IMG/VR virus record: IMGVR_UViG_3300030329_003698
Location: 13,183-77,182 of that record
DNA from: a virus
DNA: 64,000 bases
Strand: one strand, 5' to 3'
Within the stretch, counting starts at the first letter, position 1. Each line of letters begins with the position of its first letter. Under the pieces are notes generated by a model. The model was given only the letters and a program-made list of their open reading frames with translations. It did not search any database and was not told the origin of the DNA. A program made the position numbers and the translations under genes. This document shows, in pieces, positions 9,779 through 49,957 of this stretch.

Positions 9779-9798
9779 ATTATATTAATGGAGAAGGA

Positions 9799-11562: not shown

Positions 11563-11586
11563 TCAGACCTTGATATGCCTTTAACC

Positions 11587-11624: not shown

Positions 11625-11638
11625 ACCTTGGAGATAAC

Positions 11639-11959
11639 ATGGAGTCAACTCTTTTTTCAGCCCCGTCGTTGGCGGCAATAGTTGCTATAGTCATGGGTCT
11701 AGGAAAGGTTATTGAAATACTTATATTAAAATCAGTACCACAAAAATCCGTACTGATGGATGACGAAAGAGCGTGGATGCAACATACTTATAAGGTTATA
11801 TCAAAGCAGGATGCTGATGGAACTCCTTTGGTTTATGTCCCAAGAAGTTGGGCAGAAACTCAAAAAGAGATGCAACACATCATGACACAAATCGTGAATG
11901 ATCAAAGAAGGATCGCTGATATATTAGATAGAATAGAAAAAAAATTAGAGAACGATTAA
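11639..11959 (+). CDS. Single-TM membrane protein, holin-like
   Basis: N-terminal hydrophobic helix and C-terminal coiled coil (RIADILDRIEKKLE). Confidence 0.5.
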   Translation: MESTLFSAPSLAAIVAIVMGLGKVIEILILKSVPQKSVLMDDERAWMQHTYKVISKQDADGTPLVYVPRSWAETQKEMQHIMTQIVNDQRRIADILDRIEKKLEND

Positions 11960-31650: not shown

Positions 31651-32674
31651 CAGAAACGCAATCAAAATGCTCTCCTCAAAATTGATGGAGAGGATCACAG
31701 ACCTCTTAGACTATTTTGAAATAGATCATGAGGTTTACGATAATAGAATAGCGTTTGCATGCCCAATTCATGGTGGAGATAACCCCAATGGTCTTACCAT
31801 ATTCACCACGGGCGACCACTCAGTCGGCAATTGGAAATGCTGGACGCATCAATGCGAACAGGAATACAAACAGGATATATTAGGGTTTGTTCAAGGTGTG
31901 TTGTCTTTACAATCTGAAGAAGATGTCGGGTTTGGACACACCTTAAGGTTCGTCGATAATTTTCTAGGGTCTCCTTCAACCGAAAATCTACCAGAGACTG
32001 ACAGCAAACAAGATTTTGTAGACCTTGCCAATAAAATCTTTTACAAAGAAGTTAAGCAAAAATCCGGTATCAGCCGCGAAGAGATAAAAAGCAGAATAGA
32101 AATCCCGGCTCAGTATTATGTTAACAGGGGATTCTTGCCAGAAACATTAAAAAAGTTTGACGTAGGATTATGTACAGCGCGGGGCAAACCAATGAGCGGC
32201 AGGGTCGTGGTTCCTGTCTATGACGATGATAAGGATCGTATGATAGGGTGCGTTGGAAGGTCGGTGAGTGACACCCTCAACCCAAAGTGGCTAAACAGCA
32301 AGGGCTTCAATTCAGGGGCTTCTTTGTATAATTATTGGCACGCAAAAGACCATATTTCGGAAACCAACACGGTCGTTTTGGTAGAAGGTCAAGGAGATGT
32401 GTGGAGATTGGACGAGGCTGGTATATATAATGTAGTGGGTATGTTTGGCTGTTCTCTAGGCGAGCAACAGCGAATCATTCTAGAACGATCTGGCGCGTTA
32501 AATCTAGTCGTCATGACAGACGCTGACGAGGCTGGCCAGAAAGCAAAAGAAAAAATTTTTCAACAGTGCGACAGAATGTACAACATTCAATTCGTTGATC
32601 TTCCACAAAAAGACGTGGGAGACATGAGCGTGGAAGAAATAAATAATTATATTAAACCGCAATTAGGAATCTAG
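31628..32674 (+). CDS. dnaG: DNA primase (CHC2 zinc finger + TOPRIM)
   Basis: CPIH...C..C, KWLNS, VEGQGD, DADEAG, KDVGD. Confidence 0.9.
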   Translation: MKTSPHSNRNAIKMLSSKLMERITDLLDYFEIDHEVYDNRIAFACPIHGGDNPNGLTIFTTGDHSVGNWKCWTHQCEQEYKQDILGFVQGVLSLQSEEDVGFGHTLRFVDNFLGSPSTENLPETDSKQDFVDLANKIFYKEVKQKSGISREEIKSRIEIPAQYYVNRGFLPETLKKFDVGLCTARGKPMSGRVVVPVYDDDKDRMIGCVGRSVSDTLNPKWLNSKGFNSGASLYNYWHAKDHISETNTVVLVEGQGDVWRLDEAGIYNVVGMFGCSLGEQQRIILERSGALNLVVMTDADEAGQKAKEKIFQQCDRMYNIQFVDLPQKDVGDMSVEEINNYIKPQLGI

Positions 32675-32854
32675 ATGTCCAGACTTGATATGAGGTTAGG
32701 ATTTAGCTATAGGGCTACTGCCCATTTGTGTACTTGGGCTGCATTGATTTTTTCTGTTCTAGATGGCTTTCAGCCTTCCCACTTTACTGAAGTATGCCTA
32801 TGGGCGTCTATCACTTTTTTTGTGCTTGATAAACCAGCAAGGCTTATAAAATGA
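32675..32854 (+). CDS. 59-aa membrane protein (not in ORF track)
   Basis: Starts directly after the primase stop, ATGA overlap with the next gene, two hydrophobic segments. Confidence 0.5.
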   Translation: MSRLDMRLGFSYRATAHLCTWAALIFSVLDGFQPSHFTEVCLWASITFFVLDKPARLIK

Positions 32855-33573
32855 CTCAAAAAATTCTAGCTATCAGTGGACACAAAAGGGCGGGCAAGAC
32901 AACGTGCATTAACTTTCTACATGGTTATGAATTACAGAGAAATCAAGTAATTGAAAAGTTCTCTTTGGATGAGAGGGGCAAGCTGTTAGTCAACGCCGTT
33001 TTCATGGACGAAAAAGGTCAAGAGGTTCAGCAAATGGGTAGGCTGGACCTAGACAACAGGGAGCCAAGGTTTGTTAAGTATTGTTCTTCCAATGTCTGGC
33101 CCTATGTCAAGTCATATAATTTTGCAGACTCTCTCAAATCAATTGCTATCAACTTTTTTGGGTTAACCTATGAACAGTGTTATGGGTCTGAGAAAGACAA
33201 AAATAGCCCCTCTCCAATAAAAGATTATACAGCCAGAGAGTTTCTACAATACTTTGGAACAGATGTTTGTCGCTCTTTAAAAGAAGATGTATGGGTGGAT
33301 TTTTGTATTAACCAAATCCAGTCAGAACAAAGTTCTCTAGCTCTTGTTGGTGACTGCCGGTTTCCAGACGAGGTGGAAGCCATCCAGAACGCTGGTGGCA
33401 AGGTCATACGCCTCACAAGAACGCCACACGAAGATTCTCACGCAAGTGAGGTGGCCTTGGATACCTACGACGGGTTTGACGCTATGATTGACAACGAGGA
33501 CATGACCGTTGAAGAGCAATCAAAAGAGTTACTAGAAATAATGAAGGGTTGGGGGTGGCTGGAGTCGATATGA
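32851..33573 (+). CDS. Deoxynucleoside monophosphate kinase
   Basis: [35 protein letters not shown]. Confidence 0.9.
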
Positions 33574-34202
33574 AAGTTAAGCTTATTTCTATTACTCCTG
33601 ACGCAGAAAAAACCATCGGATACTGCGCCAGAGTTAGCAACCCTAAGAATCAAGACAACCCAGACGTAGCTGGGCTGTTGAAGTTTTGCATCAAACATGG
33701 CCACTGGTCTATATTTGAGATGGCTAACATGGTGGTTGAAATTAACACCACCAGAGGAATAGCCGCTCAGATTTTAAGACACAGAAGTTTTTCATTTCAA
33801 GAGTTCAGCCAGAGATACGCAAAAGCACAAGGGTTTGAATATGTCAAGCCAAGAAGACAAGACAACAAGAACAGGCAAAACTCTTTTGACGATTTGTCTG
33901 AAGACGATAGAACTTGGTTTGAATATACACATCAAAGAATTCAAGACGCAACAAGCGCATTTTACGAAGAAGCCCTAGAAAGAGGTATAGCCAAAGAAAC
34001 CGCTAGGTTCATGTTGCCGCTTAGTACCAAGACGCGCATGTATATGAATGGAACAGTTAGAAGCTGGATTCATTACATAAAACTGCGAACAGATCCATCA
34101 ACTCAGAAAGAGCATCAGGACATTGCAAATGAAATCAAGGGCATCTTTAGGGAAGAACTTCCTGTCATATCAGAAGCCTTGGAGTGGAATGAATGCTCGT
34201 AG
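33570..34202 (+). CDS. thyX: Flavin-dependent thymidylate synthase
   Basis: [33 protein letters not shown]. Confidence 0.95.
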
Positions 34203-35215
34203 CTTATATACGAAGCTCATCATATAATAGTTATGATTACTGTCAACAACAGTATTATATAAATTATGTTTTGGGGTTTCCGTCAACATCAGGCAAAAAA
34301 GCCCAACAGGGAACCATCGTCCACAAGGTGATGGAGTGTCTGTCCGCTTGCAAGAAAAGACTACAAAATCTCCCCGAGTCTAGTTTGATGAGCGTGACAG
34401 ATGACGCGCTTGGAAGAATCACATTCACCCACAGCAAACTATACTCAGATGAATTTGTTGATAAATTAGTGGATAAAAGTTTTGAACATTATACTTCTAA
34501 TTGCGTCCATGATTATACAGATAAAGAAGAGAGGGAGTGTCGCAAATGGACGTGGATGGGTCTACATTACAATGACGGCCAATTTGATCCTAGAAACAGA
34601 ACCATTGTAGACACAGAACCACACTTTGACATCGAGATAGATGAACCTTGGGCAGAGTATGACTACACCCTTGATGATGGGACAAGACTAAAAGGTAAAT
34701 TAGCCATCAAGGGGACTATAGATCTAGTTACCGAGGTGGAAAACGGGGTCATAGAAGTTGTAGATTGGAAGACTGGAAGAAGAATTAATTGGGCCACAGG
34801 TGAAGAAAAAGACTATAATAAACTAGAGACTGACCCACAACTGCTTCTCTACTATTATGCTATATCAAAGCTATACCCTGATTACGATCAGGCTATAATG
34901 ACCATTTTCTATATCAAAGACGGAGGACCATTCTCACTGTGCTATGACGATGGGGCTAAAGAGTTATTTCTTAATATGCTAAGAAAGAGATTCAACCAAA
35001 TAAAAAATAACAAATCCCCAATGTTATTGTCTCAGAACCAATCGCACTGGAAGTGTACTAAACTTTGCGATTACTATAAGAACAACTGGGAAGGTACGGA
35101 TACTAATATTTGTAAATATGTACAACAACATATTAAGCAAAACGGTATCGAAAGGACAACGCAAGATTGTACCAAACCAGACTTTAACATAGGGTATTAT
35201 GATGCTCCCGGTTAA
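34193..35215 (+). CDS. PD-(D/E)xK (AddB/Cas4-like) exonuclease
   Basis: GTIVH, GTIDL, VVDWKTG, QLLLY; one N-terminal and three C-terminal Cys. Confidence 0.85.
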
Positions 35216-36146
35216 ATATTTTAACAATAAAGAGATCGCGGAACTACTCTCAGTTCCAGAGTGTGTAGAGCTTGTAGAAGACCTTTTTCTAAATTTTGAC
35301 GACACCCAGATGCCGCCCAAAGTATACATGAATGTTCCCAACGGGGACTTCAGGGCTATGCCAGCGGTTGTGGGCAAAACGGCGGGAATTAAGTGGGCTG
35401 GACTCAACATCAAGGAAGAGGGCAAGATCAACATCTTTGCTATGGTGATGATCAATGATATTGAAACTGGAGACCTGCTAGCAGTTTTAGACGCAGAAAC
35501 ACTTACGGCTATTAGAACGGCGGCTGTGACAGGTGTTGCTACTAGACACATGTCTCCGTCTTATGCCAAAACAGCGGCATTCATAGGTTGTGGACATCAG
35601 ACGCTCAGACAAATTCGGGCGGTAGCGCATGTCAGAGATATAGAAACTATAAAGCTTTTTGACCTGAGTGAAGATAGAGCAAACTCGGTAAAAGAAGCCC
35701 TTCAGTATAAAGACAACTATTATCAGTCGCAGGGAATTGCGGTAGAGGTTTGTGAAAGCCTAGAACAATGTTTGTGGGATTCTGATATTGTTACGACTTT
35801 AACACCATCACGAACACCTTTTATAAAATATAAAGATTTAAAACCTATAGTTCATATTAATGCCGTTGGCGCTGACGCAGAGGGAAAAAGAGAATTGCAC
35901 TCCTGCGTCCTTGAAAATGTTGATATGGTCTCCTACGATGAGTGGGTCCAGTGTTCCCATTCTGGAGAGATACAATACGCCAAGAAAAGCAAAATCTCAC
36001 AGATATGGTCGCCATTATCAGAAATAGTGCAAGGAAGAGTTGAAAAAAGTGGCGCGTTGAGGACTCTGTTTGACGCCACAGGGCTTGCTATAGAAGACGT
36101 TGCCACAGCCCGATATATCTACGAAAAGTTTAACAGGAAAAAATAA
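35199..36146 (+). CDS. Ornithine cyclodeaminase/mu-crystallin family
   Basis: MPA, LTAIRTAA, GCGHQ, HINAVGAD..GKRE, FDATGLAIED. Confidence 0.92.
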   Translation: MMLPVKYFNNKEIAELLSVPECVELVEDLFLNFDDTQMPPKVYMNVPNGDFRAMPAVVGKTAGIKWAGLNIKEEGKINIFAMVMINDIETGDLLAVLDAETLTAIRTAAVTGVATRHMSPSYAKTAAFIGCGHQTLRQIRAVAHVRDIETIKLFDLSEDRANSVKEALQYKDNYYQSQGIAVEVCESLEQCLWDSDIVTTLTPSRTPFIKYKDLKPIVHINAVGADAEGKRELHSCVLENVDMVSYDEWVQCSHSGEIQYAKKSKISQIWSPLSEIVQGRVEKSGALRTLFDATGLAIEDVATARYIYEKFNRKK

Positions 36147-36184
36147 CCTAATCGGTTAGGATCTTGATCGTATAGGAAGCTAAA

Positions 36185-38101
36185 ATGCCTATCTGGACAC
36201 CGTTGCATCTACACACTCACTACAGTTTGCTCGACGGACTTTCAAAACCCGCTCAGGTTGCTGCGCGTTGCGAAGAACTTGGGTATGACTCATGCGCCTT
36301 AACAGACCATGGGACAATTTCAGGGTCCATCTCTTTTGTTAGAGCTATGAAAGAGAAAAACATAAAGCCTATTTTGGGTTGTGAGTTCTATCTATGTGAT
36401 CAAGACCCTTGTATTAAAGATAAAACAAACAGACGGCTTAGTCATCTAGTAGTGTTGGCTAAGAATTTTGAAGGATGGAAAAAATTAATAGAGGCCACGT
36501 CAGCTAGCAACGACGAAGAGGTCTTTTACCACAAGCCTCGTCTAGACCTGAACACCTTGGCAGAATACTGTGATGGCAACCTGATAAGTTTTTCGGGCCA
36601 TCTTGGTAGTCAACTTGCAGATATCATCTTTTCAGATGCCAGATCTGCCTATGGAGCTAAAACATACGAAGAAGCAAAATCGTTCGTGGACCCGGACTGG
36701 GTTAGCAAAACTACCCAGCTTGCTGAGAAATACCGCGAGATATTTGGCAAGGATAATTTCTTCCTTGAGATACAACTTATTGACCAAGATATGGCTCCGG
36801 CACAGAGGATTACAGCAGAGGGGCTAAGATATGTAAGTAAGTTAACAGGAATACCCTGTGTAGCTACAGCAGACTCTCATTACCCATCCTCAGAGGATGC
36901 AGCCGATCAGCGCGTTCTACTTTGTTCGTCTCTCAGAACTACGCTAAAAAAAGTCAGCGAGAAGATGAACAACGACGAGGAGATAGGTCTTGGCGGATTC
37001 TTTCGCTCTAACAAATACCACATTCCCACACAAGAAGAAATAGCTGCTATAAATTCCGAGGCTGAGATAGCCAACACCAGAAGAATCAGTGATATGTGCG
37101 AGTCTTATGAAGTCTTGGGAAAACCAATGCTTCCTAAGTTCGACTGTCCTGATGGAATGGGTGAATATGAATATCTAACGCAACTGTGTAGACATGGTTG
37201 GGTGGACAGGCTAGCGTCTCTTGGAAAGGTTGATGACCAGAACAAGAGCAACGAATATTCCGAAAGGATCAAGAAAGAGCTTTCTGTGATAAAAGAGGCA
37301 GACCTCTCTGGATACTTTCTTATCGTCCAAGATATCGTTAACCATGTTAGGCAAGAAAACTGGTTGCCGGGGCCGGGAAGAGGGTCGGCGGCAGGTTGTC
37401 TTATTTCCTATCTGATTGGTATAACAGAAGTAGACCCCATACAGTATAATTTAATTTTTGAGAGATTTTATAACGCTGGTCGGAACACAGAGGGTCATGT
37501 ATCCTTGCCTGATATTGATATCGACGTTCCCACAACAAAGCGGGAACAAGTAATAGAATATATGCGGGTAAAATACGGAAGAGAAAAAGTCGGCCAGATG
37601 GTAACTTTTGGGCGTATGCAGGGTAGAACTTCTATCAAAGAGGTTCTTAGGGTTCACGATGCTTGTAGCTACGACGAGATGAATGAGATAACAAGGAACA
37701 TCCCTTCCGAAGCTGAGATTTCTGACCAGCTACAAGAAATGGACGATCCCTCAATTATTAGATGGGCATTAATGAACACGCCAGACCAATTAAAAGATTG
37801 GTGTAGACTTGAGGATGACGGCACAATTACTGGCGAACTAGGCAAGCTTTTTGAACAAGCTATCAGACTAGAAGGAACATACAAATCTCAGGGCAAGCAT
37901 GCAGCAGGGGTTGTGATCGGCTCTGAGAAACTCAACGAGGTGTGTCCGATGGTCAGAGAAAAAAGAGGACACGAGAAGATTGCGGGATTGGAAATGCAAG
38001 ACTTAGAAGCAATGGGTCATGTAAAGTTTGATGTTCTGGGCATTAGTTTTTTGGACAAAATCATGGGAGTATCTAACCAACTAGACAGTGGAAAAATATA
38101 A
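36185..38101 (+). CDS. dnaE: DNA polymerase III alpha, N-terminal part (PHP, palm, thumb)
   Basis: HLHTHYSLLDG, TDHG, GRGSAAG, FERFYN, PDIDID, KHAAGVV, KFDVLG, then stop. Confidence 0.93.
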   Translation: MPIWTPLHLHTHYSLLDGLSKPAQVAARCEELGYDSCALTDHGTISGSISFVRAMKEKNIKPILGCEFYLCDQDPCIKDKTNRRLSHLVVLAKNFEGWKKLIEATSASNDEEVFYHKPRLDLNTLAEYCDGNLISFSGHLGSQLADIIFSDARSAYGAKTYEEAKSFVDPDWVSKTTQLAEKYREIFGKDNFFLEIQLIDQDMAPAQRITAEGLRYVSKLTGIPCVATADSHYPSSEDAADQRVLLCSSLRTTLKKVSEKMNNDEEIGLGGFFRSNKYHIPTQEEIAAINSEAEIANTRRISDMCESYEVLGKPMLPKFDCPDGMGEYEYLTQLCRHGWVDRLASLGKVDDQNKSNEYSERIKKELSVIKEADLSGYFLIVQDIVNHVRQENWLPGPGRGSAAGCLISYLIGITEVDPIQYNLIFERFYNAGRNTEGHVSLPDIDIDVPTTKREQVIEYMRVKYGREKVGQMVTFGRMQGRTSIKEVLRVHDACSYDEMNEITRNIPSEAEISDQLQEMDDPSIIRWALMNTPDQLKDWCRLEDDGTITGELGKLFEQAIRLEGTYKSQGKHAAGVVIGSEKLNEVCPMVREKRGHEKIAGLEMQDLEAMGHVKFDVLGISFLDKIMGVSNQLDSGKI

Positions 38102-38331
38102 TGGATGAAATCGCAGAGCTTTACAAGACAGTATTAATAGATGGCTCATCTGTGGAATGTCAAAAACTTTCCCTTTGCTGTCTTAACGACTACTATCCTA
38201 GATTTAAAACTTTAAAATACCAAGTAGATTGTGACGACTACAGACTAAAGTTTTCACAAATATATGATGGACCTCAACTTGGTCAAGCTATAAGTAAATA
38301 TCTAGAGATAAAAAGAAAGCTGTATAAATGA
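38101..38331 (+). CDS. Hypothetical protein
   Basis: TAATG-coupled to dnaE-N. Confidence 0.6.
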   Translation: MDEIAELYKTVLIDGSSVECQKLSLCCLNDYYPRFKTLKYQVDCDDYRLKFSQIYDGPQLGQAISKYLEIKRKLYK

Positions 38332-38852
38332 GGCTAGACCACATAGCTTACAGAGTTGCCGACAGAAAAGAGGCTGCCAGCTTTCTAAACTCAATACTTG
38401 AGTATAAGGTTGGAACTGAGTTTGATATCGTTTTTGACGATGGGTCAAAGGCTGAATGCATTGCAATGATCCCTAGAGAAAAAATGGACAATGTCCCACC
38501 AATAGAAGCCGGGGGATTTCGACATCTTGCTCCAGAAATATTCATATCGGACGGGGACGAGAATTCAATTGTTGGTCAGTGGGTTGCCGAAAGAGGTGGT
38601 GTTGGAGGGGTTCACCATTTTGCATACCAAGTGTTTGGAATAGATCGGGTAGTAAAAGATTGGCGAGAAAAAGGCGTAGAATTTCTCACAGAAGACGTAA
38701 TCGACTGTCCTGAAGACGACCTAAAACAAATCTTCACAAAACCCCTTGCACAATTGGGCGGGGTGATCATAGAACTCATAGAGCGGGGCCAAAAGGGTTT
38801 CTGCCAAAACTCAGTAAAAAATCTAATGGAATCTACTAAGGAAGCAAAATGA
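38328..38852 (+). CDS. VOC-fold protein resembling the HPPD C-terminal catalytic domain
   Basis: LDHIAY, GVHHFAY, GVEFL, LKQIFTKP, IELIER, GF. Confidence 0.8.
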   Translation: MRLDHIAYRVADRKEAASFLNSILEYKVGTEFDIVFDDGSKAECIAMIPREKMDNVPPIEAGGFRHLAPEIFISDGDENSIVGQWVAERGGVGGVHHFAYQVFGIDRVVKDWREKGVEFLTEDVIDCPEDDLKQIFTKPLAQLGGVIIELIERGQKGFCQNSVKNLMESTKEAK

Positions 38853-40339
38853 CGACTTATCAAATCGCCAAAGGCATGCATTACATCAACGGTGAGTTTG
38901 TAGAAGGAAACGAAGAAAGTTTATTCGACAGTATTAACCCAGCAACAGGGAGAATCATTGGGTCTTTTCCCCAAGCTACATCAGCAGAGATTTCTTCAGC
39001 GTACAACGCTGCCAAGTCCGCTTTTCCAGAGTGGAGAAACTTAAGTAGATTTCAACGCGGCGATTATTTTCTCAGGGTGGCAGAACTTCTAGAAAACAAC
39101 AAGGAAGATATCGCCGCTATTATTAGCCAAGAAACAGGAAAAGTTTTCAACGAGTCTATTGCAGAGGTCAACGAGGCTTTGCACATGGCTCAATACGCTT
39201 TTAGCACAGGAAGAATGCCTTATGGAGAAGCAATCGCGTCTGAGCTACCTGAAAAAGACGCTTTTATGCTCAGGAAGCCCAAGGGTGTTGTTGCTATTGT
39301 TGCTCCTTTTAACTTTCCTTTCGCTATTGGAGGCTTCTGGTGTGCTGCACCGGCTCTTGTCGAAGGTAATACTGTCGTTCTAAAGCCCAGCGAAGACGTT
39401 GCGTGGGTTGGGCAAATTATTGCGGAGCTATACAAAGAGGCTGGTTTTCCTCCGGGTGTGTTTAACATGGTTCACGGAGATGGAGAGGTTGGCGATAAAT
39501 TGATCCATGAAGATGTAGACCACATTTGCTTTACCGGAAGCGCCGATGTAGGAATGCATGTTCGTAAAGTGTGTGCTGAAAGCTGGCACAAAACTTGTTC
39601 TTGTGAAATGGGAAGTAAATCAGCAGTAATTATCCATGAAGACGCTAATTATGACCTCGCAATGGCAGCATGCCTTGCCAGCGCTTTCAAACTATCTGGT
39701 CAACGTTGCGTGTCTGCTGGCCGGATGATTGTCCACCGATCTCTATACGACAGATTCGCAAAAGATTTTGCTTCTCTTGCTGCTAACGCCGTAACAGGAG
39801 ATCCGTTTGACGACAACACATTTTATGGAAGTCTAATTAATGAACCCCAACTCCAAAGGGTTGAAGGGTTTAACAAAATGGTAGAAGAAGATCCAGAAGC
39901 AGAAGTGCTGTTGATGGGAGAACGCTTGGAGGGCGACGGTTTATTCTTGACGCCCACTGTCTACAAGACTGAGTGGAGAGATGTCCCTTATCTCAAGCAG
40001 GAGGTATTTGGACCTCATGTCTCTATTATTCCTTACGACACAGTAGATGATGCTATTCGCATTTACAATGATACGGACTATGGACTTTCACTAGGAGTAG
40101 TAACGGAGAACTTTAAAATTGCCAGACGTATCCGTAATGAATGTGATTTTGGTCTTGGTTATTGGAACGGCGGGAGCATTGCTGCTGAGAGCCATCTGGG
40201 ATTCGGAGGAGTGAAGAAGTCTGGAAACGGACAACCTAGCGCAGCCCGAACCTTCAGATCTGTTACCCACGAAGTAGCTTGGACTGTAAACCATGGTGAT
40301 TCATTAAACTTCCCACAAGGCATGAACACCGGTAGCTGA
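38849..40339 (+). CDS. NAD(P)-dependent aldehyde dehydrogenase (semialdehyde dehydrogenase candidate)
   Basis: PFNFP, KPSE, FTGS, EMGSK, GQRC, EVFGP, FGGVKKSG. Confidence 0.93.
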   Translation: MTTYQIAKGMHYINGEFVEGNEESLFDSINPATGRIIGSFPQATSAEISSAYNAAKSAFPEWRNLSRFQRGDYFLRVAELLENNKEDIAAIISQETGKVFNESIAEVNEALHMAQYAFSTGRMPYGEAIASELPEKDAFMLRKPKGVVAIVAPFNFPFAIGGFWCAAPALVEGNTVVLKPSEDVAWVGQIIAELYKEAGFPPGVFNMVHGDGEVGDKLIHEDVDHICFTGSADVGMHVRKVCAESWHKTCSCEMGSKSAVIIHEDANYDLAMAACLASAFKLSGQRCVSAGRMIVHRSLYDRFAKDFASLAANAVTGDPFDDNTFYGSLINEPQLQRVEGFNKMVEEDPEAEVLLMGERLEGDGLFLTPTVYKTEWRDVPYLKQEVFGPHVSIIPYDTVDDAIRIYNDTDYGLSLGVVTENFKIARRIRNECDFGLGYWNGGSIAAESHLGFGGVKKSGNGQPSAARTFRSVTHEVAWTVNHGDSLNFPQGMNTGS

Positions 40340-41139
40340 TGACTGAAATACTAGTATGTAAGCCAACATATTTTGGTATAGAATATGAAATAAACCCTTG
40401 GATGAGCATGAATAAAGATGCTGATCCAGAGTTTGCGATGTTTCAATGGGATCGTATGTGCGACCGTCTCAAAAAGGCGGGTGCTAGGATTAGGTACATC
40501 GAACCGCAGCGTGGTTTACCAGACATGGTATTCACAGCTAATGCTGGCTTAGTTTACAAAAACACTGTAATTCTATCAAACTTTAGACACCAAGAACGAC
40601 GAGAAGAAAAAAAACTCTTTAAAGAATGGTTCTTGCGAAATGGGTACAGGGTTGTCGAACTTCCAGAAAGCGTATGTTTTGAGGGAGAAGGAGACGCTCT
40701 TTTTTTTAAGGGTGTGCTGTTTATGGGTTCTGGCTTCAGAACTGACCCAGACGCACATTCGATAATAGGCCGAGCGCTTGATATAGATGTTGTTAGCTGT
40801 GAATTAGTTGACCCAAGGTTCTATCACCTAGACACCTGTTTTCTTCCTTTAAAAGATAGAATTGTTTATTACAGAGATGCGTTTTCTAAGTTCAGTCAAC
40901 ATATAATGATACAAAAGCTGATAGAGATTGGTTACAATAGTGGGACTTTGGATGTCTTAAACGTACACGAGGACCAAGCTAAAGAGTTTATTTGTAACAG
41001 CATTGAGATAGACGAAACTGTTGTAACTCCTACAGATATGTTTTCTCTATCATTTTCTGGTAAAAAGACGCTGGTTAGCAATATGTCAGAATTTATGAAA
41101 TCTGGAGGAGCCGTAAAATGTCTAACTCTCAGACTATAG
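40339..41139 (+). CDS. Amidinotransferase superfamily, ArgZ/Rv2323c-like arginine dihydrolase or DDAH
   Basis: YEINPWM, PDMVFTAN, FEGEGD, FYHLDTC, GGAVKC. Confidence 0.88.
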   Translation: MTEILVCKPTYFGIEYEINPWMSMNKDADPEFAMFQWDRMCDRLKKAGARIRYIEPQRGLPDMVFTANAGLVYKNTVILSNFRHQERREEKKLFKEWFLRNGYRVVELPESVCFEGEGDALFFKGVLFMGSGFRTDPDAHSIIGRALDIDVVSCELVDPRFYHLDTCFLPLKDRIVYYRDAFSKFSQHIMIQKLIEIGYNSGTLDVLNVHEDQAKEFICNSIEIDETVVTPTDMFSLSFSGKKTLVSNMSEFMKSGGAVKCLTLRL

Positions 41140-42326
41140 ACACTTTACAAAAATACATCCTTGTTGACGGATTTCATATTGTAGTAGACACAAGGAGGAG
41201 TGTCGGTAGCTGGATTGTCGATGTAGACATGGGCAATAGATATTTGGACTGCTACTCTCAATTTGCCAGCCAAGCACTGGGCTGGAAAGACCCAGCTATG
41301 ATATCCGCACAAAGGGAGATGGGTCGGGTTGGCATGACAAAGATTGCCAACAGTGATATGTACTCAGAAGAATACGCAAGGTTTGTTGAAAGTTTTGCGT
41401 CCATCACTCCTGATTTTGAACATTACTTTTTTATTGACGGTGGAGCTTTAGCAGTAGAGAACGCGCTAAAAGCCGCGTTTGATTGGAAGGCTCAAAAACT
41501 GGGGTACAGCCACACTGTTGATATCAACAATCTAGACATCTTCCATCTCAAGAATGCATTTCACGGGCGAACAGGATACACCCTTTCTCTCACCAATACA
41601 ACCCCCGAAAAGACCGCGCTTTTTCCCAAGTTTAGATGGACTACCGTAGAGCCTGATTGGGAAGATATTGAACGCCGTATGCATAAAGAGGTTGCTGCCA
41701 TCATCGTGGAACCGATCCAAGGTGAAGGTGGAGACAACCATTTTCCTACAGAGTTTTTCCAGAACCTTAGACGCATAGCAAACGAACACGATTGCCTTCT
41801 TATATTTGATGAAGTGCAAACAGGTATGGGGCTGACCGGAAAGATGTGGGCTTATGAACATTTCGATGTTGTCCCAGACATGATGTGCTTCGGCAAGAAA
41901 ACTCAAGTGTGTGGAGTCTGTTCCACAAACAGGATAGACGAGGTAGAGAGCAATGTCTTCAGTACTTCCGGTCGTGTTAATTCTACTTGGGGTGGCAATA
42001 TTGTGGATATGGTTAGATCTAGATACATAATAGATGCTATTCAACAACGAGATTTAGTAGAAAACGCATCGAAAGTTGGCCAAGATCTTCTTAGGCAGTT
42101 GAGAAAACTTCCAGTAATAGACAATGTTCGTGGTAGAGGTCTTATGATTGCGTTTGACTTGCCGGATGAGCAAACGCGAGACGGGATGATGTCACTTCTA
42201 CAAGAGAACATGCTTGCTCTTAAGTCTGGCAATCGTTCAATTAGACTAAGACCACCGCTGACATTTTCTTTTGAGGATGCGGAGTCGGCAAAGAACTTCA
42301 TCTATGAGGCCATTACAAAACTATGA
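41118..42326 (+). CDS. lat: L-lysine 6-aminotransferase (class III PLP)
   Basis: ILVDG..VVD..RS.GS N-terminus, GALAVENALKAAFDWK, AFHGRTGY, EPIQGEGG, DEVQTG, FGKK, STWGG. Confidence 0.9.
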   Translation: MSNSQTIDTLQKYILVDGFHIVVDTRRSVGSWIVDVDMGNRYLDCYSQFASQALGWKDPAMISAQREMGRVGMTKIANSDMYSEEYARFVESFASITPDFEHYFFIDGGALAVENALKAAFDWKAQKLGYSHTVDINNLDIFHLKNAFHGRTGYTLSLTNTTPEKTALFPKFRWTTVEPDWEDIERRMHKEVAAIIVEPIQGEGGDNHFPTEFFQNLRRIANEHDCLLIFDEVQTGMGLTGKMWAYEHFDVVPDMMCFGKKTQVCGVCSTNRIDEVESNVFSTSGRVNSTWGGNIVDMVRSRYIIDAIQQRDLVENASKVGQDLLRQLRKLPVIDNVRGRGLMIAFDLPDEQTRDGMMSLLQENMLALKSGNRSIRLRPPLTFSFEDAESAKNFIYEAITKL

Positions 42327-43162
42327 AAATAAGAAACGTAGGAATAGTAGGGCAGGGCTTTGTTGGGACGGCTTTAAGAGAAGTGTTCTCGTGTTACAAC
42401 AAAGTGTATACTTATGATAAAGCTCATAAAGATCTCTCCACGCATAAAGGAATATCCGATCTATCATACTCTTGTGATGTGATTTTTGTTTGCGTTCCAA
42501 CGCCAATGAAGCCAGACGGATCATGCGACACATCAATTGTTGAGACGGTTTGTTTAGATGCTTGCAAAACCGGAAGACAAAATATCATTGTCATCAAGTC
42601 TACGGTTCCTCCGGGGACCACCAAAAAAATCAACGAAAAATGCATTGATTCCCAAGTAGTCTTTAACCCTGAGTTTCTTCTGGAAAGAAACGCCACTGAA
42701 GACTTTCGTAATACCAGTCGTGTTATTCTAGGTGGGCCAAGGCCAGCTACGACTAGACTAAGATCATTCTACGCAAACGTTTTCCCCAAAGCCTCCATTG
42801 TAAAGACAGACTCAACTATAGCGGAGTACGTGAAATATCTCACCAATTGCTTCTTATCTGTGAAGGTTTCCCTAGCCAACGAAATCTCGTCGATGTGCAA
42901 GGAGGACGGGGTTGACTACGACAAGGTGATCGAATATGCTATACACGACAACAGATTGGGGGATTCTCACTGGTCGGTTCCCGGCCCGGACGGCAATCTG
43001 GGATTTGGAGGGAGTTGTTTTCCAAAAGATCTCAACGCTTTAATACAACACGCAATAAATGCTGGCGTACCTCCAAACACTATGATCGGCGCTTGGAATA
43101 CCAATCTAACAGTAAGACCACAAAAAGACTGGGAACAGCTTAAAGGAAGGGCTGTACAATGA
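42323..43162 (+). CDS. UDP-glucose/GDP-mannose dehydrogenase family, lacking the C-terminal domain
   Basis: GQGFVG, CVPTP, KSTVPPGT, NPEFL, FGGSCFPKD. Confidence 0.85.
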   Translation: MKIRNVGIVGQGFVGTALREVFSCYNKVYTYDKAHKDLSTHKGISDLSYSCDVIFVCVPTPMKPDGSCDTSIVETVCLDACKTGRQNIIVIKSTVPPGTTKKINEKCIDSQVVFNPEFLLERNATEDFRNTSRVILGGPRPATTRLRSFYANVFPKASIVKTDSTIAEYVKYLTNCFLSVKVSLANEISSMCKEDGVDYDKVIEYAIHDNRLGDSHWSVPGPDGNLGFGGSCFPKDLNALIQHAINAGVPPNTMIGAWNTNLTVRPQKDWEQLKGRAVQ

Positions 43163-44229
43163 GAGCAGCTATAATTGGCGTGGGAAACATGGGTCAAGCT
43201 GTAGCTTGGTCTATGGATGAACTTGGCTTTGATTTAACGCTTGTTGACTCTTCGGAAAAAGCTCTCGAAGAGTGTAACCAGCTTTTACAAAAACCCGCTA
43301 ACCTACAACATAGTTATACTCTAGGGCTTGGCAATCCAGACGTAGTTATATCTTGTCTTCCGTACAGCGAAAACACTTTACTAGCACAGTACTGCATCAA
43401 AAACAGACTAAGGTATTGTGATCTTGGCGGAAACGTAAAAATCAGCGAAGACATCAACGAATTCGCCAGTAGATCCGCTAAAGCCCCAATTATGACTGAC
43501 CTCGGCCTTGCTCCGGGTTTTGTTAACATTGTTCTTGAAGAGTTTTTCAGACAGGCGTCGGAAGCGGAAGACCAACTGAAGACTCCAGAAAATGTCAATG
43601 TTATGGTTGGTGGTATCCCTCAAAGCCGAGTACCATCAGATTATTTTAATTATAACTGCACTTGGTCTGTGGACGGCTTGATCAACGAATATACGGAAGA
43701 CTGCATCCTTGTTCAGAACGGGGTAAAGATTGTATCTCCACCACTCCTTGGTTTAGTAAAACTAATGACAAAAAATCTTGGAGAACTAGAAGCCTTTTAC
43801 ACAAGCGGTGGGTCTGCCCATAGCGTAAATAGAATGATAGAGCTTGGGGTTTCTAATTTTTCATACAGGACATTACGCTGGCCGGGACACCACTGGACCA
43901 TAAATCTACTGATCAATAAATGCGATCTAAATAAAGATCAGCTTAAGCACATATTTACAAAAAACTGTAGCACACCAACAAATGATGACTGTGTTGCTAT
44001 TTATATGAGTGTGGATGACAAGATTCAAGAGATGGTCATATATCCACAAAGAGGGTTTACAGCCATGCAAGTTGGCACTGGATACTCAGCCGCAGTAGTA
44101 GCCTCTCTACTTGCGAGGGGAGACTTCGACGACAAGAAGACTGTAAAATATGAAGACATAAATTTTGAAACTTTTACTGAAGTTCTAGACAAACTTGTAA
44201 GCACAGAGAACGATAATGAATTACAATGA
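43159..44229 (+). CDS. Saccharopine dehydrogenase / lysine 6-dehydrogenase family
   Basis: GVGNMG, DLGG, GLAPG, WSVDGLINEY, EAFYTSGG, RTLRWPGH. Confidence 0.88.
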   Translation: MRAAIIGVGNMGQAVAWSMDELGFDLTLVDSSEKALEECNQLLQKPANLQHSYTLGLGNPDVVISCLPYSENTLLAQYCIKNRLRYCDLGGNVKISEDINEFASRSAKAPIMTDLGLAPGFVNIVLEEFFRQASEAEDQLKTPENVNVMVGGIPQSRVPSDYFNYNCTWSVDGLINEYTEDCILVQNGVKIVSPPLLGLVKLMTKNLGELEAFYTSGGSAHSVNRMIELGVSNFSYRTLRWPGHHWTINLLINKCDLNKDQLKHIFTKNCSTPTNDDCVAIYMSVDDKIQEMVIYPQRGFTAMQVGTGYSAAVVASLLARGDFDDKKTVKYEDINFETFTEVLDKLVSTENDNELQ

Positions 44230-44896
44230 TATTTGCGTTTTCGATTTTGAGACCGGGAGTAGAAACCCACACACAACACAGCCAATACAAGTGGCTGCTG
44301 TAATGATTCATGGCAGAAAACTGACCATACAACCAGACGGATATTTCGAATCTCTTATAAAACCAATGGGAGATGAAAAAGCTGTGGCCGCTGGTGTGGA
44401 CCCGCTAGAAGACGAGGCTCTTCAAATAAACGGCAAGACCAGAGCAGAGCTTTCAAAAGCTCCACACGCCAAAACTGTGTGGGAAAGATTTGCAAACTTT
44501 GTAAACAAGTTTAACTACAAAGGGGGTTCTTGGACCGCCCCCATAGCCGCTGGTCACAATATAGACAATTTCGATATGATTATTGCCGAAAGACTATGCA
44601 AATCATACGGACCAATAGATAAGAAGAGGAATGTTCAGGCCGTCTTTCATCCAATCCATAGGCTAGACTTGATGAGAGAGGTTTGGATGTGGACAGAAAA
44701 TAACAAAGACATCAGAAGTATAAGCATGGACTCTATTAGAGACTGGCTTGGTATGTCTAAAGAAAATGCCCACGACGCCCTACAAGATGTAAAAGACACC
44801 GCCGCTGTATTGATTAAGTTTATGAAACTTTATCGTCATTACGCACCCAAGGTTAAGTTTGAAAAGGCTTTTGCCAATGACGGATTACCGGTTTGA
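44216..44896 (+). CDS. DEDDh 3'-5' exonuclease (DnaQ/epsilon-like)
   Basis: FDFETG, GHNIDNFD, HDALQD. Confidence 0.9.
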   Translation: MNYNDICVFDFETGSRNPHTTQPIQVAAVMIHGRKLTIQPDGYFESLIKPMGDEKAVAAGVDPLEDEALQINGKTRAELSKAPHAKTVWERFANFVNKFNYKGGSWTAPIAAGHNIDNFDMIIAERLCKSYGPIDKKRNVQAVFHPIHRLDLMREVWMWTENNKDIRSISMDSIRDWLGMSKENAHDALQDVKDTAAVLIKFMKLYRHYAPKVKFEKAFANDGLPV

Positions 44897-46550
44897 TTGC
44901 GGTTGTAGCTTCTCTGTTAAAGATCCGAAGCACCCTATTACTCTATCCCAAACGGGTTTGCCATCTGTAGACTTTAAAATAAGAGAGTCTCCATATGATT
45001 GTAGAATGACTTGGGACTTAATCAAGGAAGGGAAAACAAAAGGTGTATTTCAACTTGAAAGTAATTTAGGAAAATCTTGGGCAAAAAGGATTCGCCCAAA
45101 CAACATCGAAGAATTAGCCGCTCTAACGGCCTTGATCAGACCCGGATGCCTCAAGGCAATCATTGACGGCAAGTCGATGACTCAGAGGTACGTCGACAGA
45201 AAGAATGGCACAGAGGAGTTAACGTACTTACACGACTCCCTAGAGCCAATATTGGAGTCCACGCAAGGGGTTCTGGTATACCAAGAGCAGAGCATGCAGA
45301 TAGCGCAAGTTATCGCGGGTTTTGATCTTCAACAAGCCGACTCTTTAAGAAAGGCTATTGGTAAGAAAAACGCCAGCTTGATGTCAGAGGTAAAGGATTC
45401 TTTTTTAGACGGGGCCGACAGCAAAGGACTCGTTACTAGAGAAATTGCGGAAGAAATTTTTGGGTGGATTGAGAAATCCAACAGGTACGCTTTCAATAAA
45501 AGCCACGCCGTTTCTTATGCCATTTGTGGATACTGGTCAGCTTACGCTAAAGCTCATTTCCCAATTAATTTCTACTGTAACTACCTCTATTTTGCTGACG
45601 GAAAACAAGATACACAATCCGAGATCAGAGAGGTTGTGAGTGACGCTAGAATTCACGGCGTTGAGATAGCCGCACCCTCCATAGTCAATATGAACCACAA
45701 ATTTAATATAAACAATAGGATTATACACTTTGGGTTTAATGACATTAAGTCTGTCGGGGCAAAGCAGGTTGAAAAGCTGGTCTCTACAATTTCTGAGATC
45801 GAAGAATTTCTAGAAAAGCCTGTTGTGGATTGGTCTTGGTATCAATTCCTGATAAATGCCTCTCACAAGATTAATAGTAAAGTTTGCAACGCCCTAGCGT
45901 CTGTTGGGGCGTTTTCTTGTTTTGGTATCTCCCGAAACAGAATGATCTACGAGATTGATGTTTGGTCCAAGCTAACGGACAAAGAAAGAGCTTGGATAAT
46001 AGAACGGCAAAAGAGTTGGGACGAGATAATACCAGCTTTGACAGAACTGTCTCCTACCAAAAAAATGGGTGGCGGAACGTTTAATGGTACAAGAAGCGAG
46101 ATTGTCAGAAGTCTTGTTTTGATGCTGGAAGACCCGCCATACTCTCTTGACGATTCTCCAAGCTGGTCTTCTAGGGTTGAAAAAGAATATCTCGGAATAC
46201 CCATTAGTTATTCTGAAGTTGATTCCTGTGACACCAGTGCGGCCACCGCCACTTGCAAAGAGTTTTTCGATGGAATCAAAGGTGATGTCACCTTGGCTGT
46301 CCAGATTATAGACCTGAAAGAATATAAATTAAAAAAGGGTCAAAATAAGGGCAGGAATATGGCTTTTCTTACGGTTGAAGATGGTACAGGATCTATTGAT
46401 AATGTGACAGTCTTTTGTGATGATTGGGAAAAACACAACACAACTTTATACGAAGGAAACACCGTTTTGTTGTACGGAGGTCGCTCAGACAGATCGCAAG
46501 CCAACAGAGGAAACGACGGTTTTGTTGTCAAAAAAGTTGTGCAAATCTGA
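44877..46550 (+). CDS. dnaE: DNA polymerase III alpha, C-terminal part (fingers, HhH, OB)
   Basis: GVFQLES, ALIRPG, GVLVYQEQ, LRKAIGKK, YAFNKSHA, IKSVG, MAFLTVED. Confidence 0.93.
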   Translation: MTDYRFDCGCSFSVKDPKHPITLSQTGLPSVDFKIRESPYDCRMTWDLIKEGKTKGVFQLESNLGKSWAKRIRPNNIEELAALTALIRPGCLKAIIDGKSMTQRYVDRKNGTEELTYLHDSLEPILESTQGVLVYQEQSMQIAQVIAGFDLQQADSLRKAIGKKNASLMSEVKDSFLDGADSKGLVTREIAEEIFGWIEKSNRYAFNKSHAVSYAICGYWSAYAKAHFPINFYCNYLYFADGKQDTQSEIREVVSDARIHGVEIAAPSIVNMNHKFNINNRIIHFGFNDIKSVGAKQVEKLVSTISEIEEFLEKPVVDWSWYQFLINASHKINSKVCNALASVGAFSCFGISRNRMIYEIDVWSKLTDKERAWIIERQKSWDEIIPALTELSPTKKMGGGTFNGTRSEIVRSLVLMLEDPPYSLDDSPSWSSRVEKEYLGIPISYSEVDSCDTSAATATCKEFFDGIKGDVTLAVQIIDLKEYKLKKGQNKGRNMAFLTVEDGTGSIDNVTVFCDDWEKHNTTLYEGNTVLLYGGRSDRSQANRGNDGFVVKKVVQI

Positions 46551-46577
46551 ACAACAGATGGTACTTTAGATAGGCGA

Positions 46578-47102
46578 ATGGAAGAGAGAATCATAAAATT
46601 TCTGAAAGACCACCACTACATGGTCAAGGTCTTTCACGCCGAGGAAAACGGTTGTAGCGCATATTTTCCATCTAGATACGTAATTGATCCAGATGTGAAC
46701 GAAAATATTTGTGTATACACTTTACAAAACGACGACACAAGACCGGGAATACATTACTATTCAACAGAACTAAACTATACAAGTTTTGTAGAGTGTCCTA
46801 TATATGCGGCCCGAATAGTAATATTCCAAGACATTTTAATGAAGACTGAGAGACTCGGATTATCAACCAAGTTCATTAGCTACTTTGACGAAAACGACAA
46901 CGAGCTAGAGGACGCAACGTTTGTTGATCTAATTGCACCCCCAGAAGACCCAAAAGAAGTAAAGTTAGAGGAAAAGTTGGCAGAAATATTCTATGAAGCA
47001 TATCCAACTTTTTCAAAAGAATTTCAAGAACTAGCAGAACAGTATGGTGTAGCTAAAGGCTACGAACTAATTAACCTAGCTTTCGTTATGGAAGGACTCT
47101 AA
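46578..47102 (+). CDS. Hypothetical acidic protein
   Basis: 174-aa ORF. Confidence 0.65.
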   Translation: MEERIIKFLKDHHYMVKVFHAEENGCSAYFPSRYVIDPDVNENICVYTLQNDDTRPGIHYYSTELNYTSFVECPIYAARIVIFQDILMKTERLGLSTKFISYFDENDNELEDATFVDLIAPPEDPKEVKLEEKLAEIFYEAYPTFSKEFQELAEQYGVAKGYELINLAFVMEGL

Positions 47103-47106
47103 TCTG

Positions 47107-47505
47107 ATGTCGATGAACAATTGCAATTTTATTGGTCGTCTTGTTGCCGATCCCGAACTAAACGACGTTAATGACACAAGCGTCGTGAGGTTTACTCTGG
47201 CTATCAACGAATACCGAAAGTCCAGAGACGGCGAAAAGAACAAGAACGTCAGTTATCTAGATTTTGAAGCTTGGGACACAGGAGCGACCACAATTGGCAA
47301 GCATTGTCGCAAGGGCGATGAAATTGCTGTATTGGCTTCTGCTCGTCAGGACAAGTGGACTGACAAGGAGGGCAACCGTCGCTCAAAGGTCAAGTTTAGA
47401 GTGAACAAGTTCAAGTTGTTTAATTATAACAATAACAATAACAACGACAGGCAAAAGGAAGAGACTCAAAAAGTAGCTGTTGCGGAGAGCGATGCCCCGT
47501 TCTAA
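47107..47505 (+). CDS. ssb: Single-stranded DNA-binding protein
   Basis: IGRLVADPEL, FTLAIN, AW, KGD, C-terminal DAPF. Confidence 0.93.
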   Translation: MSMNNCNFIGRLVADPELNDVNDTSVVRFTLAINEYRKSRDGEKNKNVSYLDFEAWDTGATTIGKHCRKGDEIAVLASARQDKWTDKEGNRRSKVKFRVNKFKLFNYNNNNNNDRQKEETQKVAVAESDAPF

Positions 47506-48007
47506 GAATTCAAATAAAGACTCTAAAGAGACAAAAGAGCTTGAGGAACAGCTAGTCCATACTCATTATGGATTGGTTGTTTCTCAGGCTCTTCGTTTTT
47601 CTAACAACAGGAGTTATATAGAAGATTACATACAGGTGGGATTGATAGGTCTGTTAAAGGCTATCAGAAATTACGATTCAGAAAAAAGTAAATTTTCAAC
47701 CTTCGCTACCGTTTGCATAAGAAACGAAATATTTAGATATACAAGAAAAAATAAGCCAAAGACAATCCCTGTAGACGCAAAAATCAAAAATGTTATAAAC
47801 AGGACCGACGACTGGTACGTTCCTGTAGAGGGAATATGGGAGTACATCCCAGACAGCTTGACTGAAAAAGAAAGGCTGGTGTTGCAAATGAAGTTTGAAA
47901 ACTACACACATAAAGAAATAGCAGATACAATATGTTGCTCAAAAGGAAGAGTAAAAAACATCCTTAAAAAAATCATATCCTTATTGCAAAGAGCCAATGG
48001 CGAATAG
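47492..48007 (+). CDS. Sigma-70 family RNA polymerase sigma factor
   Basis: EDYIQVGLIGLLKAIRNYD..KSKFSTFA; YTHKEIA HTH. Confidence 0.9.
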   Translation: MPRSKNSNKDSKETKELEEQLVHTHYGLVVSQALRFSNNRSYIEDYIQVGLIGLLKAIRNYDSEKSKFSTFATVCIRNEIFRYTRKNKPKTIPVDAKIKNVINRTDDWYVPVEGIWEYIPDSLTEKERLVLQMKFENYTHKEIADTICCSKGRVKNILKKIISLLQRANGE

Positions 48008-49676: not shown

Positions 49677-49944
49677 AAACAGAGCCGGATTTGAAATAAC
49701 GTTCAATAATGAGGTTACAGTCTTTGTAGAATGGGATTCTTCCAGTGGTAACCTTGCCTCTGCGAGAGCTTCTCACTCTAAAGCTGGAGATTTACACGTC
49801 ACAAGTTTTGAGAAAAAGTACACGGAAGGCAACTACACTATTAAAGATTTGTCGCCTGAAGAGCTTCTTAAATTTTTGAACAAGTCTTGCAGCATGCGTT
49901 TTACAGAAGAGGGCGAACAGTGCGTAGCCTTTTTTGACTTTTAA
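49660..49944 (+). CDS. Hypothetical protein
   Basis: Coupled ORF. Confidence 0.55.
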   Translation: MFPVFKNRAGFEITFNNEVTVFVEWDSSSGNLASARASHSKAGDLHVTSFEKKYTEGNYTIKDLSPEELLKFLNKSCSMRFTEEGEQCVAFFDF

Positions 49945-49957
49945 ATAGATAGAAGAA

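Follow-up and report, generated by a model that had tools for sequence, protein, structure and literature searches.

Why would a marine phage keep enzymes of amino-acid breakdown between the two halves of its replicative DNA polymerase gene? The question is raised by a stretch of 64,000 nucleotides (the window; bases 13183-77182 of the linear IMG/VR record IMGVR_UViG_3300030329_003698, which is 77,182 bp long), in which genes for an aldehyde dehydrogenase (ALDH), an ArgZ-like hydrolase and a lysine 6-aminotransferase (LAT)-like protein lie, with several companions, inside a split dnaE gene. An initial annotation of the window had read this block as a set of genes for mining nitrogen from lysine and arginine. 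The enzyme identities, the phage origin and the embedding in the polymerase operon held in our analysis, whereas co-conservation of the full set and the ornithine cyclodeaminase (OCD) and Pcd labels did not. On balance, we lean towards an auxiliary metabolic module of the phage that breaks down basic amino acids and is expressed within the DNA-polymerase operon.

A conserved core of three genes

A search of IMG/VR with the hydrolase returned 107 relatives, and the 21 closest (49-71% identity) were surveyed for the cassette. The genes for the ALDH, the hydrolase and the LAT-like protein occur in the same order in all 21 contigs, usually preceded by a gene for a vicinal oxygen chelate (VOC) protein. 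The core consists of these three genes, with the VOC gene as the usual companion and the saccharopine dehydrogenase-family (SacDH) and OCD genes as accessories, so that the co-conservation expected for the whole set was observed for the ALDH, ArgZ-like and LAT-like genes (usually with the VOC gene) but not for the lysine dehydrogenase (LysDH)-like and OCD-like genes. Five of the 21 cassettes lie inside a split dnaE, two lie downstream of a dnaE-SSB-glycosyltransferase arrangement, and 14 lie among other genes, including those for dCMP deaminase, cytidylyltransferase, class-I aldolase and rIIA. With dN/dS values of 0.03-0.11 where dS is unsaturated, the cassette is under strong purifying selection. 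It was found in dozens of IMG/VR contigs and in Tara Oceans sequences of fractions that range from the surface to the mesopelagic.

Compared with the relative L003, nucleotide identity is 84-95% in the segments from the VOC gene to the ALDH gene and from the LAT gene to a short gene resembling UDP-glucose dehydrogenase (UGDH), 67-78% in the dnaE backbone, 66-69% in the hydrolase gene and 58-62% in the SacDH gene. By these values, related phages pass the block among themselves and exchange individual alleles, and for the hydrolase and SacDH genes the pattern points to allelic replacement through recombination between phages that circulate together. Among cellular hydrolases, the nearest share at most 47% identity, and most of them belong to Planctomycetota, Verrucomicrobiota and Chloroflexota; LAT and ALDH genes both lie nearby in a single one of 80 cellular hydrolase loci, and there on the other strand. 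The trio looks assembled by phages rather than captured as a bacterial operon.

Such mosaicism could also mean that unrelated auxiliary genes have piled up, with no common pathway, at a permissive insertion site. Alleles are exchanged gene by gene, the OCD, SacDH, SET-like and class-I aldolase genes vary around the core, and the short UGDH gene is independent of the cassette, all of which a pile-up would explain. We nevertheless hold it to be very unlikely, since the order of the ALDH, arginine dihydrolase (ArgDH) and LAT genes and their overlapping junctions are kept in 21 contigs and three unrelated contexts, and the core chemistries are consecutive.

Several further genes were seen around the cassettes of relatives. 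A 121-aa open reading frame (ORF) lies between the ALDH and hydrolase genes in three of them (L024:9639-10004, L025:4188-4553 and L026:9639-10004), and its C-terminus (...GEELLVDY) resembles, by eye only, a SET-domain methyltransferase motif. A class-I fructose-bisphosphate aldolase (PF00274, 349 bits) is encoded at L021:1547-2521 and also in L024, L025, L026, L030, L031 and L032, and in L030 and L032 it stands directly between the LAT and SacDH genes. Genes for a GlmS-like glutamine amidotransferase (L021:5317-7101), a radical SAM protein (L018:9413-11131) and a dCMP deaminase (L018:1779-2231) lie near relatives' cassettes. Two cassette neighbours in other phages, c1 (HAD-like) and c2 (DUF2784), were considered as members and set aside; c1 lies elsewhere in the window and c2 is absent from it.

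Enzymes of the core

The hydrolase appears to be a stand-alone homologue of the ArgZ/AgrE-type arginine dihydrolases, with the conversion of arginine to ornithine, two NH3 and CO2 as its candidate activity. A phmmer search aligned residues 3-266 with the dihydrolase domain of ArgZ/AgrE in the Protein Data Bank (PDB; 6jv0/6lrf, E 5e-60). The catalytic motifs FEG, FYHLDTC and KCLTL of ArgZ have their counterparts at E115, H163 and C261, which do not vary across 15 sequences from phages and cells. In a second set, of 15 phage homologues, H163 is present in 15/15, FEG is unmatched in L021 and KCLTL is unmatched in L031. The protein also carries a clade-specific insertion of ~10 aa. Among cultured phages, ArgZ-like homologues are distant and solitary only, as in the jumbo phage RsoM2USA and in phiXF1 (Table 1).

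The LAT-like protein matches Mycobacterium tuberculosis LAT (PDB 2cin) at 372 bits, and the next family follows at 164. Equivalents of R170, E243, K300, T330 and R422 of that enzyme, which include the lysine that holds pyridoxal phosphate (PLP) and the substrate-binding residues, all align in the window protein, and the motifs FHGR, QGEGG, FGKKTQ and STWGG do not vary among 15 homologues. A LAT homologue of 55% identity is encoded in a 595-kb uncultured huge phage (LR756511.1, 504208-505443; L172), where the other cassette genes were absent within 10 kb.

The catalytic motifs of the ALDH are likewise invariant in 15 homologues, with Asn in APFNFP, Glu in CEMGSKS and Cys in SGQRCVS, and relatives at 63% identity or more fall into at least 120 metagenomic clusters. 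Retention of the catalytic and cofactor motifs, reported in the initial annotation, is thus borne out, as they are intact in the window proteins.

The VOC protein is a single domain of 174 aa and equivalent only to the C-terminal catalytic domain of 4-hydroxyphenylpyruvate dioxygenase (HPPD), a two-domain enzyme of ~350-390 aa. H5, H96/H97 and E149 do not vary among 12 homologues, and neither does QIFTKP...ELIERG.KGF; these are candidates for the His/His/Glu metal triad and the C-terminal helix signature of HPPD and hydroxymandelate synthase (HMS). An AlphaFold2 model (pLDDT 70) superposes on the catalytic domains of these two enzymes; in Foldseek searches it matched methylmalonyl-CoA epimerase (MCE) at E 5e-7 and the C-terminal domains of HMS/HPPD with TMq 0.59-0.63, and at this medium confidence it is equally close to MCE and to the HMS/HPPD catalytic domain. 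We regard the protein as a candidate Fe(II)-dependent 2-oxoacid oxygenase.

The chemistry of HglS (DUF1338), a 2-oxoadipate dioxygenase/decarboxylase, would fit after aminoadipate in lysine catabolism. The corresponding Pfam family PF07063 had no match at E <=0.01, and the sole link between the VOC protein and HglS is a weak language-model lead (score 0.91, 165 shared features).

A proposed route from arginine and lysine to glutamate

Because the core genes are invariant neighbours that encode consecutive chemistries, we propose a pathway of three steps. The ArgZ-like hydrolase would take the guanidino group off arginine, yielding ornithine, CO2 and 2 NH3. The LAT-like PLP enzyme would then take the terminal amino group from ornithine, lysine or both and pass it to 2-oxoglutarate, yielding glutamate together with glutamate semialdehyde (from ornithine) or aminoadipate semialdehyde (from lysine), and the ALDH would oxidise the semialdehyde to glutamate or 2-aminoadipate with formation of NAD(P)H. 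From arginine through ornithine and glutamate semialdehyde to glutamate is the simplest chain. Judged by the LAT-type residues, the conversion of lysine through aminoadipate semialdehyde to 2-aminoadipate is equally possible, and the enzyme pair may take both substrates.

Other genes could extend this route. The VOC protein may be an optional addition that hydroxylates and decarboxylates a 2-oxoacid (2-oxoadipate, for instance) with O2 and Fe(II), a speculative HglS-type chemistry on another scaffold. In some lineages, the LysDH-like enzyme could provide an NH3-releasing entry to the lysine aldehyde, and the OCD- or alanine dehydrogenase (AlaDH)-like enzyme could convert ornithine to proline and NH3 or reduce a ketimine. 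The net effect would be to turn the most nitrogen-rich amino acids of the host into ammonium, glutamate and reducing power during phage replication, and the released nitrogen might supply dNTP synthesis. The placement in a polymerase operon, or beside early and replication genes elsewhere, suggests expression during replication. Which substrates are used, which way the flux runs, when this happens and what the products serve are inferences.

A number of points weigh against this proposal. None of the cassette proteins attains an NCBIfam equivalog cut-off, for which the curated values are 450 bits for the arginine dihydrolase model NF052232, 300 for NF045659 (mycobacterial dimethylarginine dimethylaminohydrolase, DDAH), 520.8 for TIGR03251 and 730 for Pcd (NF050084). 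The hydrolase reaches 254 bits on NF052232 and is almost as near to the DDAH model, at 228 bits. The LAT-like protein, at 484.2 bits, falls just under the TIGR03251 cut-off because a ~30-aa deletion splits the match in two. Characterised LAT homologues are lysine-selective, so the chain from arginine through ornithine to glutamate requires a putative activity on ornithine. The ALDH is equidistant from many ALDH subfamilies, none of them at curated level; with 274.8 bits on NF050084 it is clearly, by score, not of the Pcd type that accompanies LAT in bacteria, and the Pcd label given to it earlier was dropped. A genuine LAT-Pcd operon, at locus L161 of a Verrucomicrobiales metagenome-assembled genome, scores 552 bits for LAT and 764 bits for Pcd. 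A role of the VOC protein in the route needs an extra alpha-transamination step, which the cassette does not encode, and with only half of the genome recovered, partner genes may be missing.

The near-equal scores of the ArgZ-like protein on the DDAH and arginine dihydrolase models would also suit a role in host takeover or counter-defence, in which arginine, lysine or a methylated or guanidino signal is depleted and host translation, growth or an arginine-dependent response is stalled. The block sits among replication genes and, in relatives, beside rIIA (the rII genes of T4 are early genes), and the distant amidinotransferase-fold homologues of cultured phages stand alone. Depletion needs the first enzyme only, however, and the conserved translational coupling of the downstream aminotransferase and ALDH argues that the products matter. 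The block has no linked gene for regulation or defence. We therefore give host takeover very little credence.

An extended version of the amino-acid breakdown that we favour would combine the ArgZ-type enzyme, a promiscuous LAT/ALDH pair and a single-domain HPPD-like oxygenase of a kind not known before, in place of HglS, into a complete nitrogen-mobilising route encoded by the phage. Such completeness is quite doubtful. If it were true, the carbon of lysine would pass to 2-oxoglutarate, both nitrogens of lysine and three of arginine would end in glutamate and ammonium, and widespread marine phages would hold a type of control over the nitrogen metabolism of their hosts that is new for viruses.

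Accessory enzymes and a possible biosynthetic role

The OCD-family protein had been identified as an ornithine cyclodeaminase, an identity that we do not retain because archaeal AlaDH scores above the OCD models. Its top NCBIfam match is archaeal AlaDH (196 bits, cut-off 409) and its top PDB match is the AlaDH 1omo (172 bits), whereas the OCD models give 115-163 bits, all under their cut-offs. It could possibly be an ornithine cyclodeaminase, a ketimine reductase or an amino-acid dehydrogenase. The gene, with dN/dS of 0.06-0.08, is confined to the window's own clade, L030 and the cassette-less L006, and it is absent from L010; it is an accessory outside the inserted block.

For the SacDH protein, the nearest PDB entry is PH1688 (3abi; 72 bits, E 4e-19, residues 1-322), an L-lysine dehydrogenase, and lysine 6-dehydrogenase is a candidate assignment. 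Its GxGxxG motif is present in 8/8 homologues, and no curated family model matched. This gene, too, is accessory, occurring in only nine of the 21 cassette contigs from IMG/VR at 34-52% identity.

The short UGDH-like protein has invariant GxGxxG, NPEFL and GGSCFPKD motifs; it is built of an NAD-binding and a central domain and retains the catalytic Cys. It covers profile positions 73-293 of 413 and ends ~45 aa past the catalytic Cys, without the C-terminal UDP-binding domain. The Pfam coordinates had suggested an N-truncated fragment, a reading rejected on the intact GxGxxG at the N-terminus. Relatives occur in at least 540 IMG/VR stretches and in metagenomic clusters that number in the hundreds at an identity of at least 61%. 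Among the best 80 of these stretches (L173-L252), 72 have no LAT gene, and none of those 72 has an ArgDH match. Membership in the pathway was rejected because the gene is mostly found without the cassette; it is probably an independent, widespread marine-phage gene that is hitch-hiking here.

These accessory enzymes bear on a biosynthetic role, in which the module would make a small molecule from arginine, ornithine or lysine (proline, pipecolate, 2-aminoadipate, or an opine-type or hydroxy-acid derivative) for use as an osmolyte or piezolyte, or as a unit that glycosyltransferases attach to glycan, virion or DNA. This phage and its relatives encode many glycosyltransferases and nucleotide-sugar enzymes, along with methyltransferases, a GlmS-like amidotransferase and a radical SAM enzyme, a short UGDH-like gene lies within the block, the VOC protein has no obvious place in simple nitrogen release, and enzymes of the OCD and saccharopine dehydrogenase families are capable of the reductive reaction. 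We still consider a biosynthetic role unlikely. The ALDH of the core would draw the semialdehyde off the pyrroline-5-carboxylate (P5C) or piperideine-6-carboxylate (P6C) needed for proline or pipecolate, the core has no P5C or P6C reductase, the OCD and SacDH genes are dispensable, and the short UGDH gene occurs mostly without the cassette. No ThyA-like hydroxymethylase or TGT/DpdA-type DNA-modification enzyme was found in the recovered 77 kb, a weak point given that half of the genome is missing.

Insertion into a split DNA polymerase operon

Upstream of the block, the gene order from 5′ to 3′ is DnaB helicase, primase, dNMP kinase, ThyX, PD-(D/E)XK nuclease, the OCD/mu-crystallin gene and the N-terminal half of DnaE (DnaE-N); the C-terminal half (DnaE-C) is followed by genes for single-stranded DNA-binding protein (SSB) and then a sigma factor (Table 1). 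DnaE is broken between palm and fingers, and no intein signature was seen. Every gene junction from DnaE-N through DnaE-C overlaps by 1-38 nt, the largest being the 38-nt overlap of the exonuclease (Exo) and DnaE-C genes. The start and stop codons thus overlap across the whole interval, which upholds the embedding of the genes in the polymerase operon. The six enzymes listed in the initial annotation were correctly recognised and placed on the plus strand, but the tight overlap claimed for them does not extend to the OCD gene, which is set apart by DnaE-N, and the 76-aa ORF and the 279-aa UGDH-like gene had been left out.

Table 1. Positions of the polymerase operon genes and inserted block in the window, of genes upstream of the window and of solitary hydrolase homologues in cultured phages
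Feature	Sequence	Position	Strand	Profile match or remark
OCD/mu-crystallin-family NAD enzyme, 315 aa	window	35199-36146	+	PF02423 229 bits
DnaE N-half (PHP + palm)	window	36185-38101	+	PF02811, PF07733; 54-93% identity among relatives
Cys-containing ORF, 76 aa	window	38101-38331	+	overlaps DnaE-N stop and VOC start
VOC protein, 174 aa	window	38328-38852	+	Glyoxalase_4 PF13669, PF00903, TIGR01263 positions 304-343
ALDH, 496 aa	window	38849-40339	+	PF00171 436 bits
ArgZ/AgrE-type hydrolase, 266 aa	window	40339-41139	+	NF052232 254 bits
LAT-family class-III aminotransferase, 402 aa	window	41118-42326	+	TIGR03251 484 bits
Short UGDH-like dehydrogenase, 279 aa	window	42323-43162	+	PF03721, PF00984
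SacDH protein, 356 aa	window	43159-44229	+	PF16653 73 bits, PF03435 34 bits
DEDD 3′-5′ exonuclease	window	44216-44896	+	PF00929
DnaE C-half (fingers, HhH, OB)	window	44859-46550	+	PF17657, PF14579, PF01336
Enoyl-CoA hydratase	L002 (upstream)	265-1215		
2OG-Fe dioxygenase	L002 (upstream)	1837-2463		PF10014
RIIA	L002 (upstream)	8534-10411		
RIIB	L002 (upstream)	11176-12030		
Solitary hydrolase homologue, jumbo phage RsoM2USA (Ralstonia)	MG752970.1	5123-5938		34-36% identity
Solitary hydrolase homologue, phage phiXF1 (Xanthomonas)	PP475461.1	37868-38665		34-36% identity; annotated DDAH

Because distant relatives without the metabolic block (L006, L010, L027 and L028) already have the order DnaE-N, exonuclease, DnaE-C, the split dnaE with an exonuclease between its halves is, on this comparison, the ancestral state and the metabolic block an insertion. 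The 76-aa ORF shows a coding-type pattern of conservation, also in L006, which lacks the cassette and keeps this ORF between DnaE-N and the exonuclease; from its alignment and position it belongs to the polymerase backbone and is not a cassette member. A 227-bp gap after DnaE-N had been considered as a promoter region and was rejected, being occupied by this conserved ORF. Repeats across the insertion borders were limited to short chance-level matches, with no flanking repeat or homing-endonuclease signature.

A promoter and terminator scan of positions 32000-48500 gave the same counts as shuffled controls and is uninformative on transcription units. Four short contigs of one marine metatranscriptome run match the window at 100%, and one of them bridges the ALDH/ArgDH junction (40277-40493). 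Since DNA carry-over into this library is possible, and the parts of the block left uncovered in the RNA run are uninformative, these contigs are a weak hint that the block is expressed.

Phage origin and integrity of the record

The record is that of an uncultured, large marine phage and is not cellular. CheckV estimates its completeness at ~51%, and all genes of the window lie on the plus strand. RIIA (phrog_612, E 8e-85) and RIIB (phrog_609, E 4e-75) are encoded in the 13 kb 5′ of the window, and the window itself carries genes for a UvsX-like recombinase, ribonucleotide reductase (RNR), ThyX, dNMP kinase and one tRNA-Arg. A profile search of the recovered 77-kb record found no terminase (PF03237), and the call of viral origin is based on the RIIA, RIIB and UvsX-like proteins of the record, not on structural genes. 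Together with the phage-type replication module, they confirm the viral origin that the initial annotation had asked to have checked.

Chimeric assembly at the junctions, named there as a reason to abandon the interpretation, is ruled out. Gene order and junctions are kept exactly in five other IMG/VR contigs from other samples, at protein identities of 49-93%, and because identical junctions recur across these independent assemblies (at least five), the contig is not an assembly chimera. The stretch is also present in DNA runs of several studies. One apparent read joint from 37347 to 45351 (run X3) was treated as spurious, as only 24 letters lie on one side of it.

The phage is distant from cultured ones, with no megablast match of the 11-kb block among 50,697 phage records and a closest match of DnaE-N in cultured phages of only 36% identity. 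A DUF1501 protein with a Tat signal, encoded at 609-1850 of the window, is conserved in the phage group (also L020:2481-3719). This protein, and the Planctomycetota and Verrucomicrobiota among the nearest cellular hydrolases, hint at a host from the PVC superphylum.

Outside the locus, very many glycosyltransferases and methyltransferases are encoded in a glycan-related set at 47997-58758 and 2170-6801 of the window, which also holds a nucleotide-sugar epimerase (16938-17900) and a HAD-nucleotidyltransferase fusion (57379-58758). These genes suggest that the phage has an elaborate glycan pathway of its own.

Relation to known systems and significance

The closest known counterparts of the phage hydrolase are the cyanobacterial enzymes ArgZ (Sll1336) and AgrE (Alr4995; PDB 6juy, 6jv0 and 6lrf), which it resembles in fold and motifs (~45% identity, alignment by eye). 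Their release of nitrogen from arginine is the role also proposed for the phage enzyme. The phage protein, however, is a lone domain of 266 aa, whereas the 700-aa ArgZ/AgrE proteins add a C-terminal LOR/SDH-like/cyclodeaminase part, and its coupled partners are a LAT-like aminotransferase and an ALDH rather than PutA. Bacterial LAT-Pcd systems such as L161 likewise pair a LAT-family aminotransferase, with its lysine and PLP residues, with an NAD(P)-dependent ALDH. The phage cassette differs from them in that its ALDH is not a Pcd orthologue (29% identity to the L161 enzyme), its LAT has the ~30-aa deletion and an arginine dihydrolase gene stands between the ALDH and LAT genes.

In its logic, the cassette follows the same three steps as the RocF-RocD-RocA pathway of Bacillus (arginine to ornithine, glutamate semialdehyde and glutamate) and the arginine succinyltransferase (AST) pathway (astCADBE), with loss of the guanidino group followed by omega-transamination and then semialdehyde oxidation by an ALDH. 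The families differ: a dihydrolase of the GME fold takes the place of arginase plus urease or of AstB, a LAT-type enzyme that of the ornithine aminotransferase (OAT)/AstC type, the ALDH is neither a P5C dehydrogenase nor AstD, and the phage route would proceed without succinylation.

The known nitrogen-related auxiliary metabolic genes of marine viruses are single genes, such as those for ammonium transporters, glutamine-related enzymes and polyamine enzymes. Like them, the cassette consists of host-type metabolic enzymes that presumably ease a nutrient bottleneck; unlike them, it would encode several successive steps of amino-acid catabolism in a single block whose genes are translationally coupled. 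A full-text literature search found no paper on such an arginine/lysine catabolic module in a virus, in agreement with the initial annotation, which knew of no described multi-step phage pathway of this kind. The enzyme families from which the auxiliary metabolic block is built are known. The novelty appears, from the sequences, to lie in a route of several steps for arginine and lysine, in an ArgZ-type enzyme that stands alone, in the ALDH outside the curated subfamilies and in the half-size HPPD-like protein.

For enzymology, the cassette is a resource of compact and diverged ArgZ, LAT, ALDH and half-size HPPD-like proteins. If the breakdown of basic amino acids that we favour is correct, these phages would install a whole nitrogen-recycling pathway in their host, timed with the replication of their genomes, and the abundance of the cassette means that it could affect the processing of organic nitrogen by infected cells.

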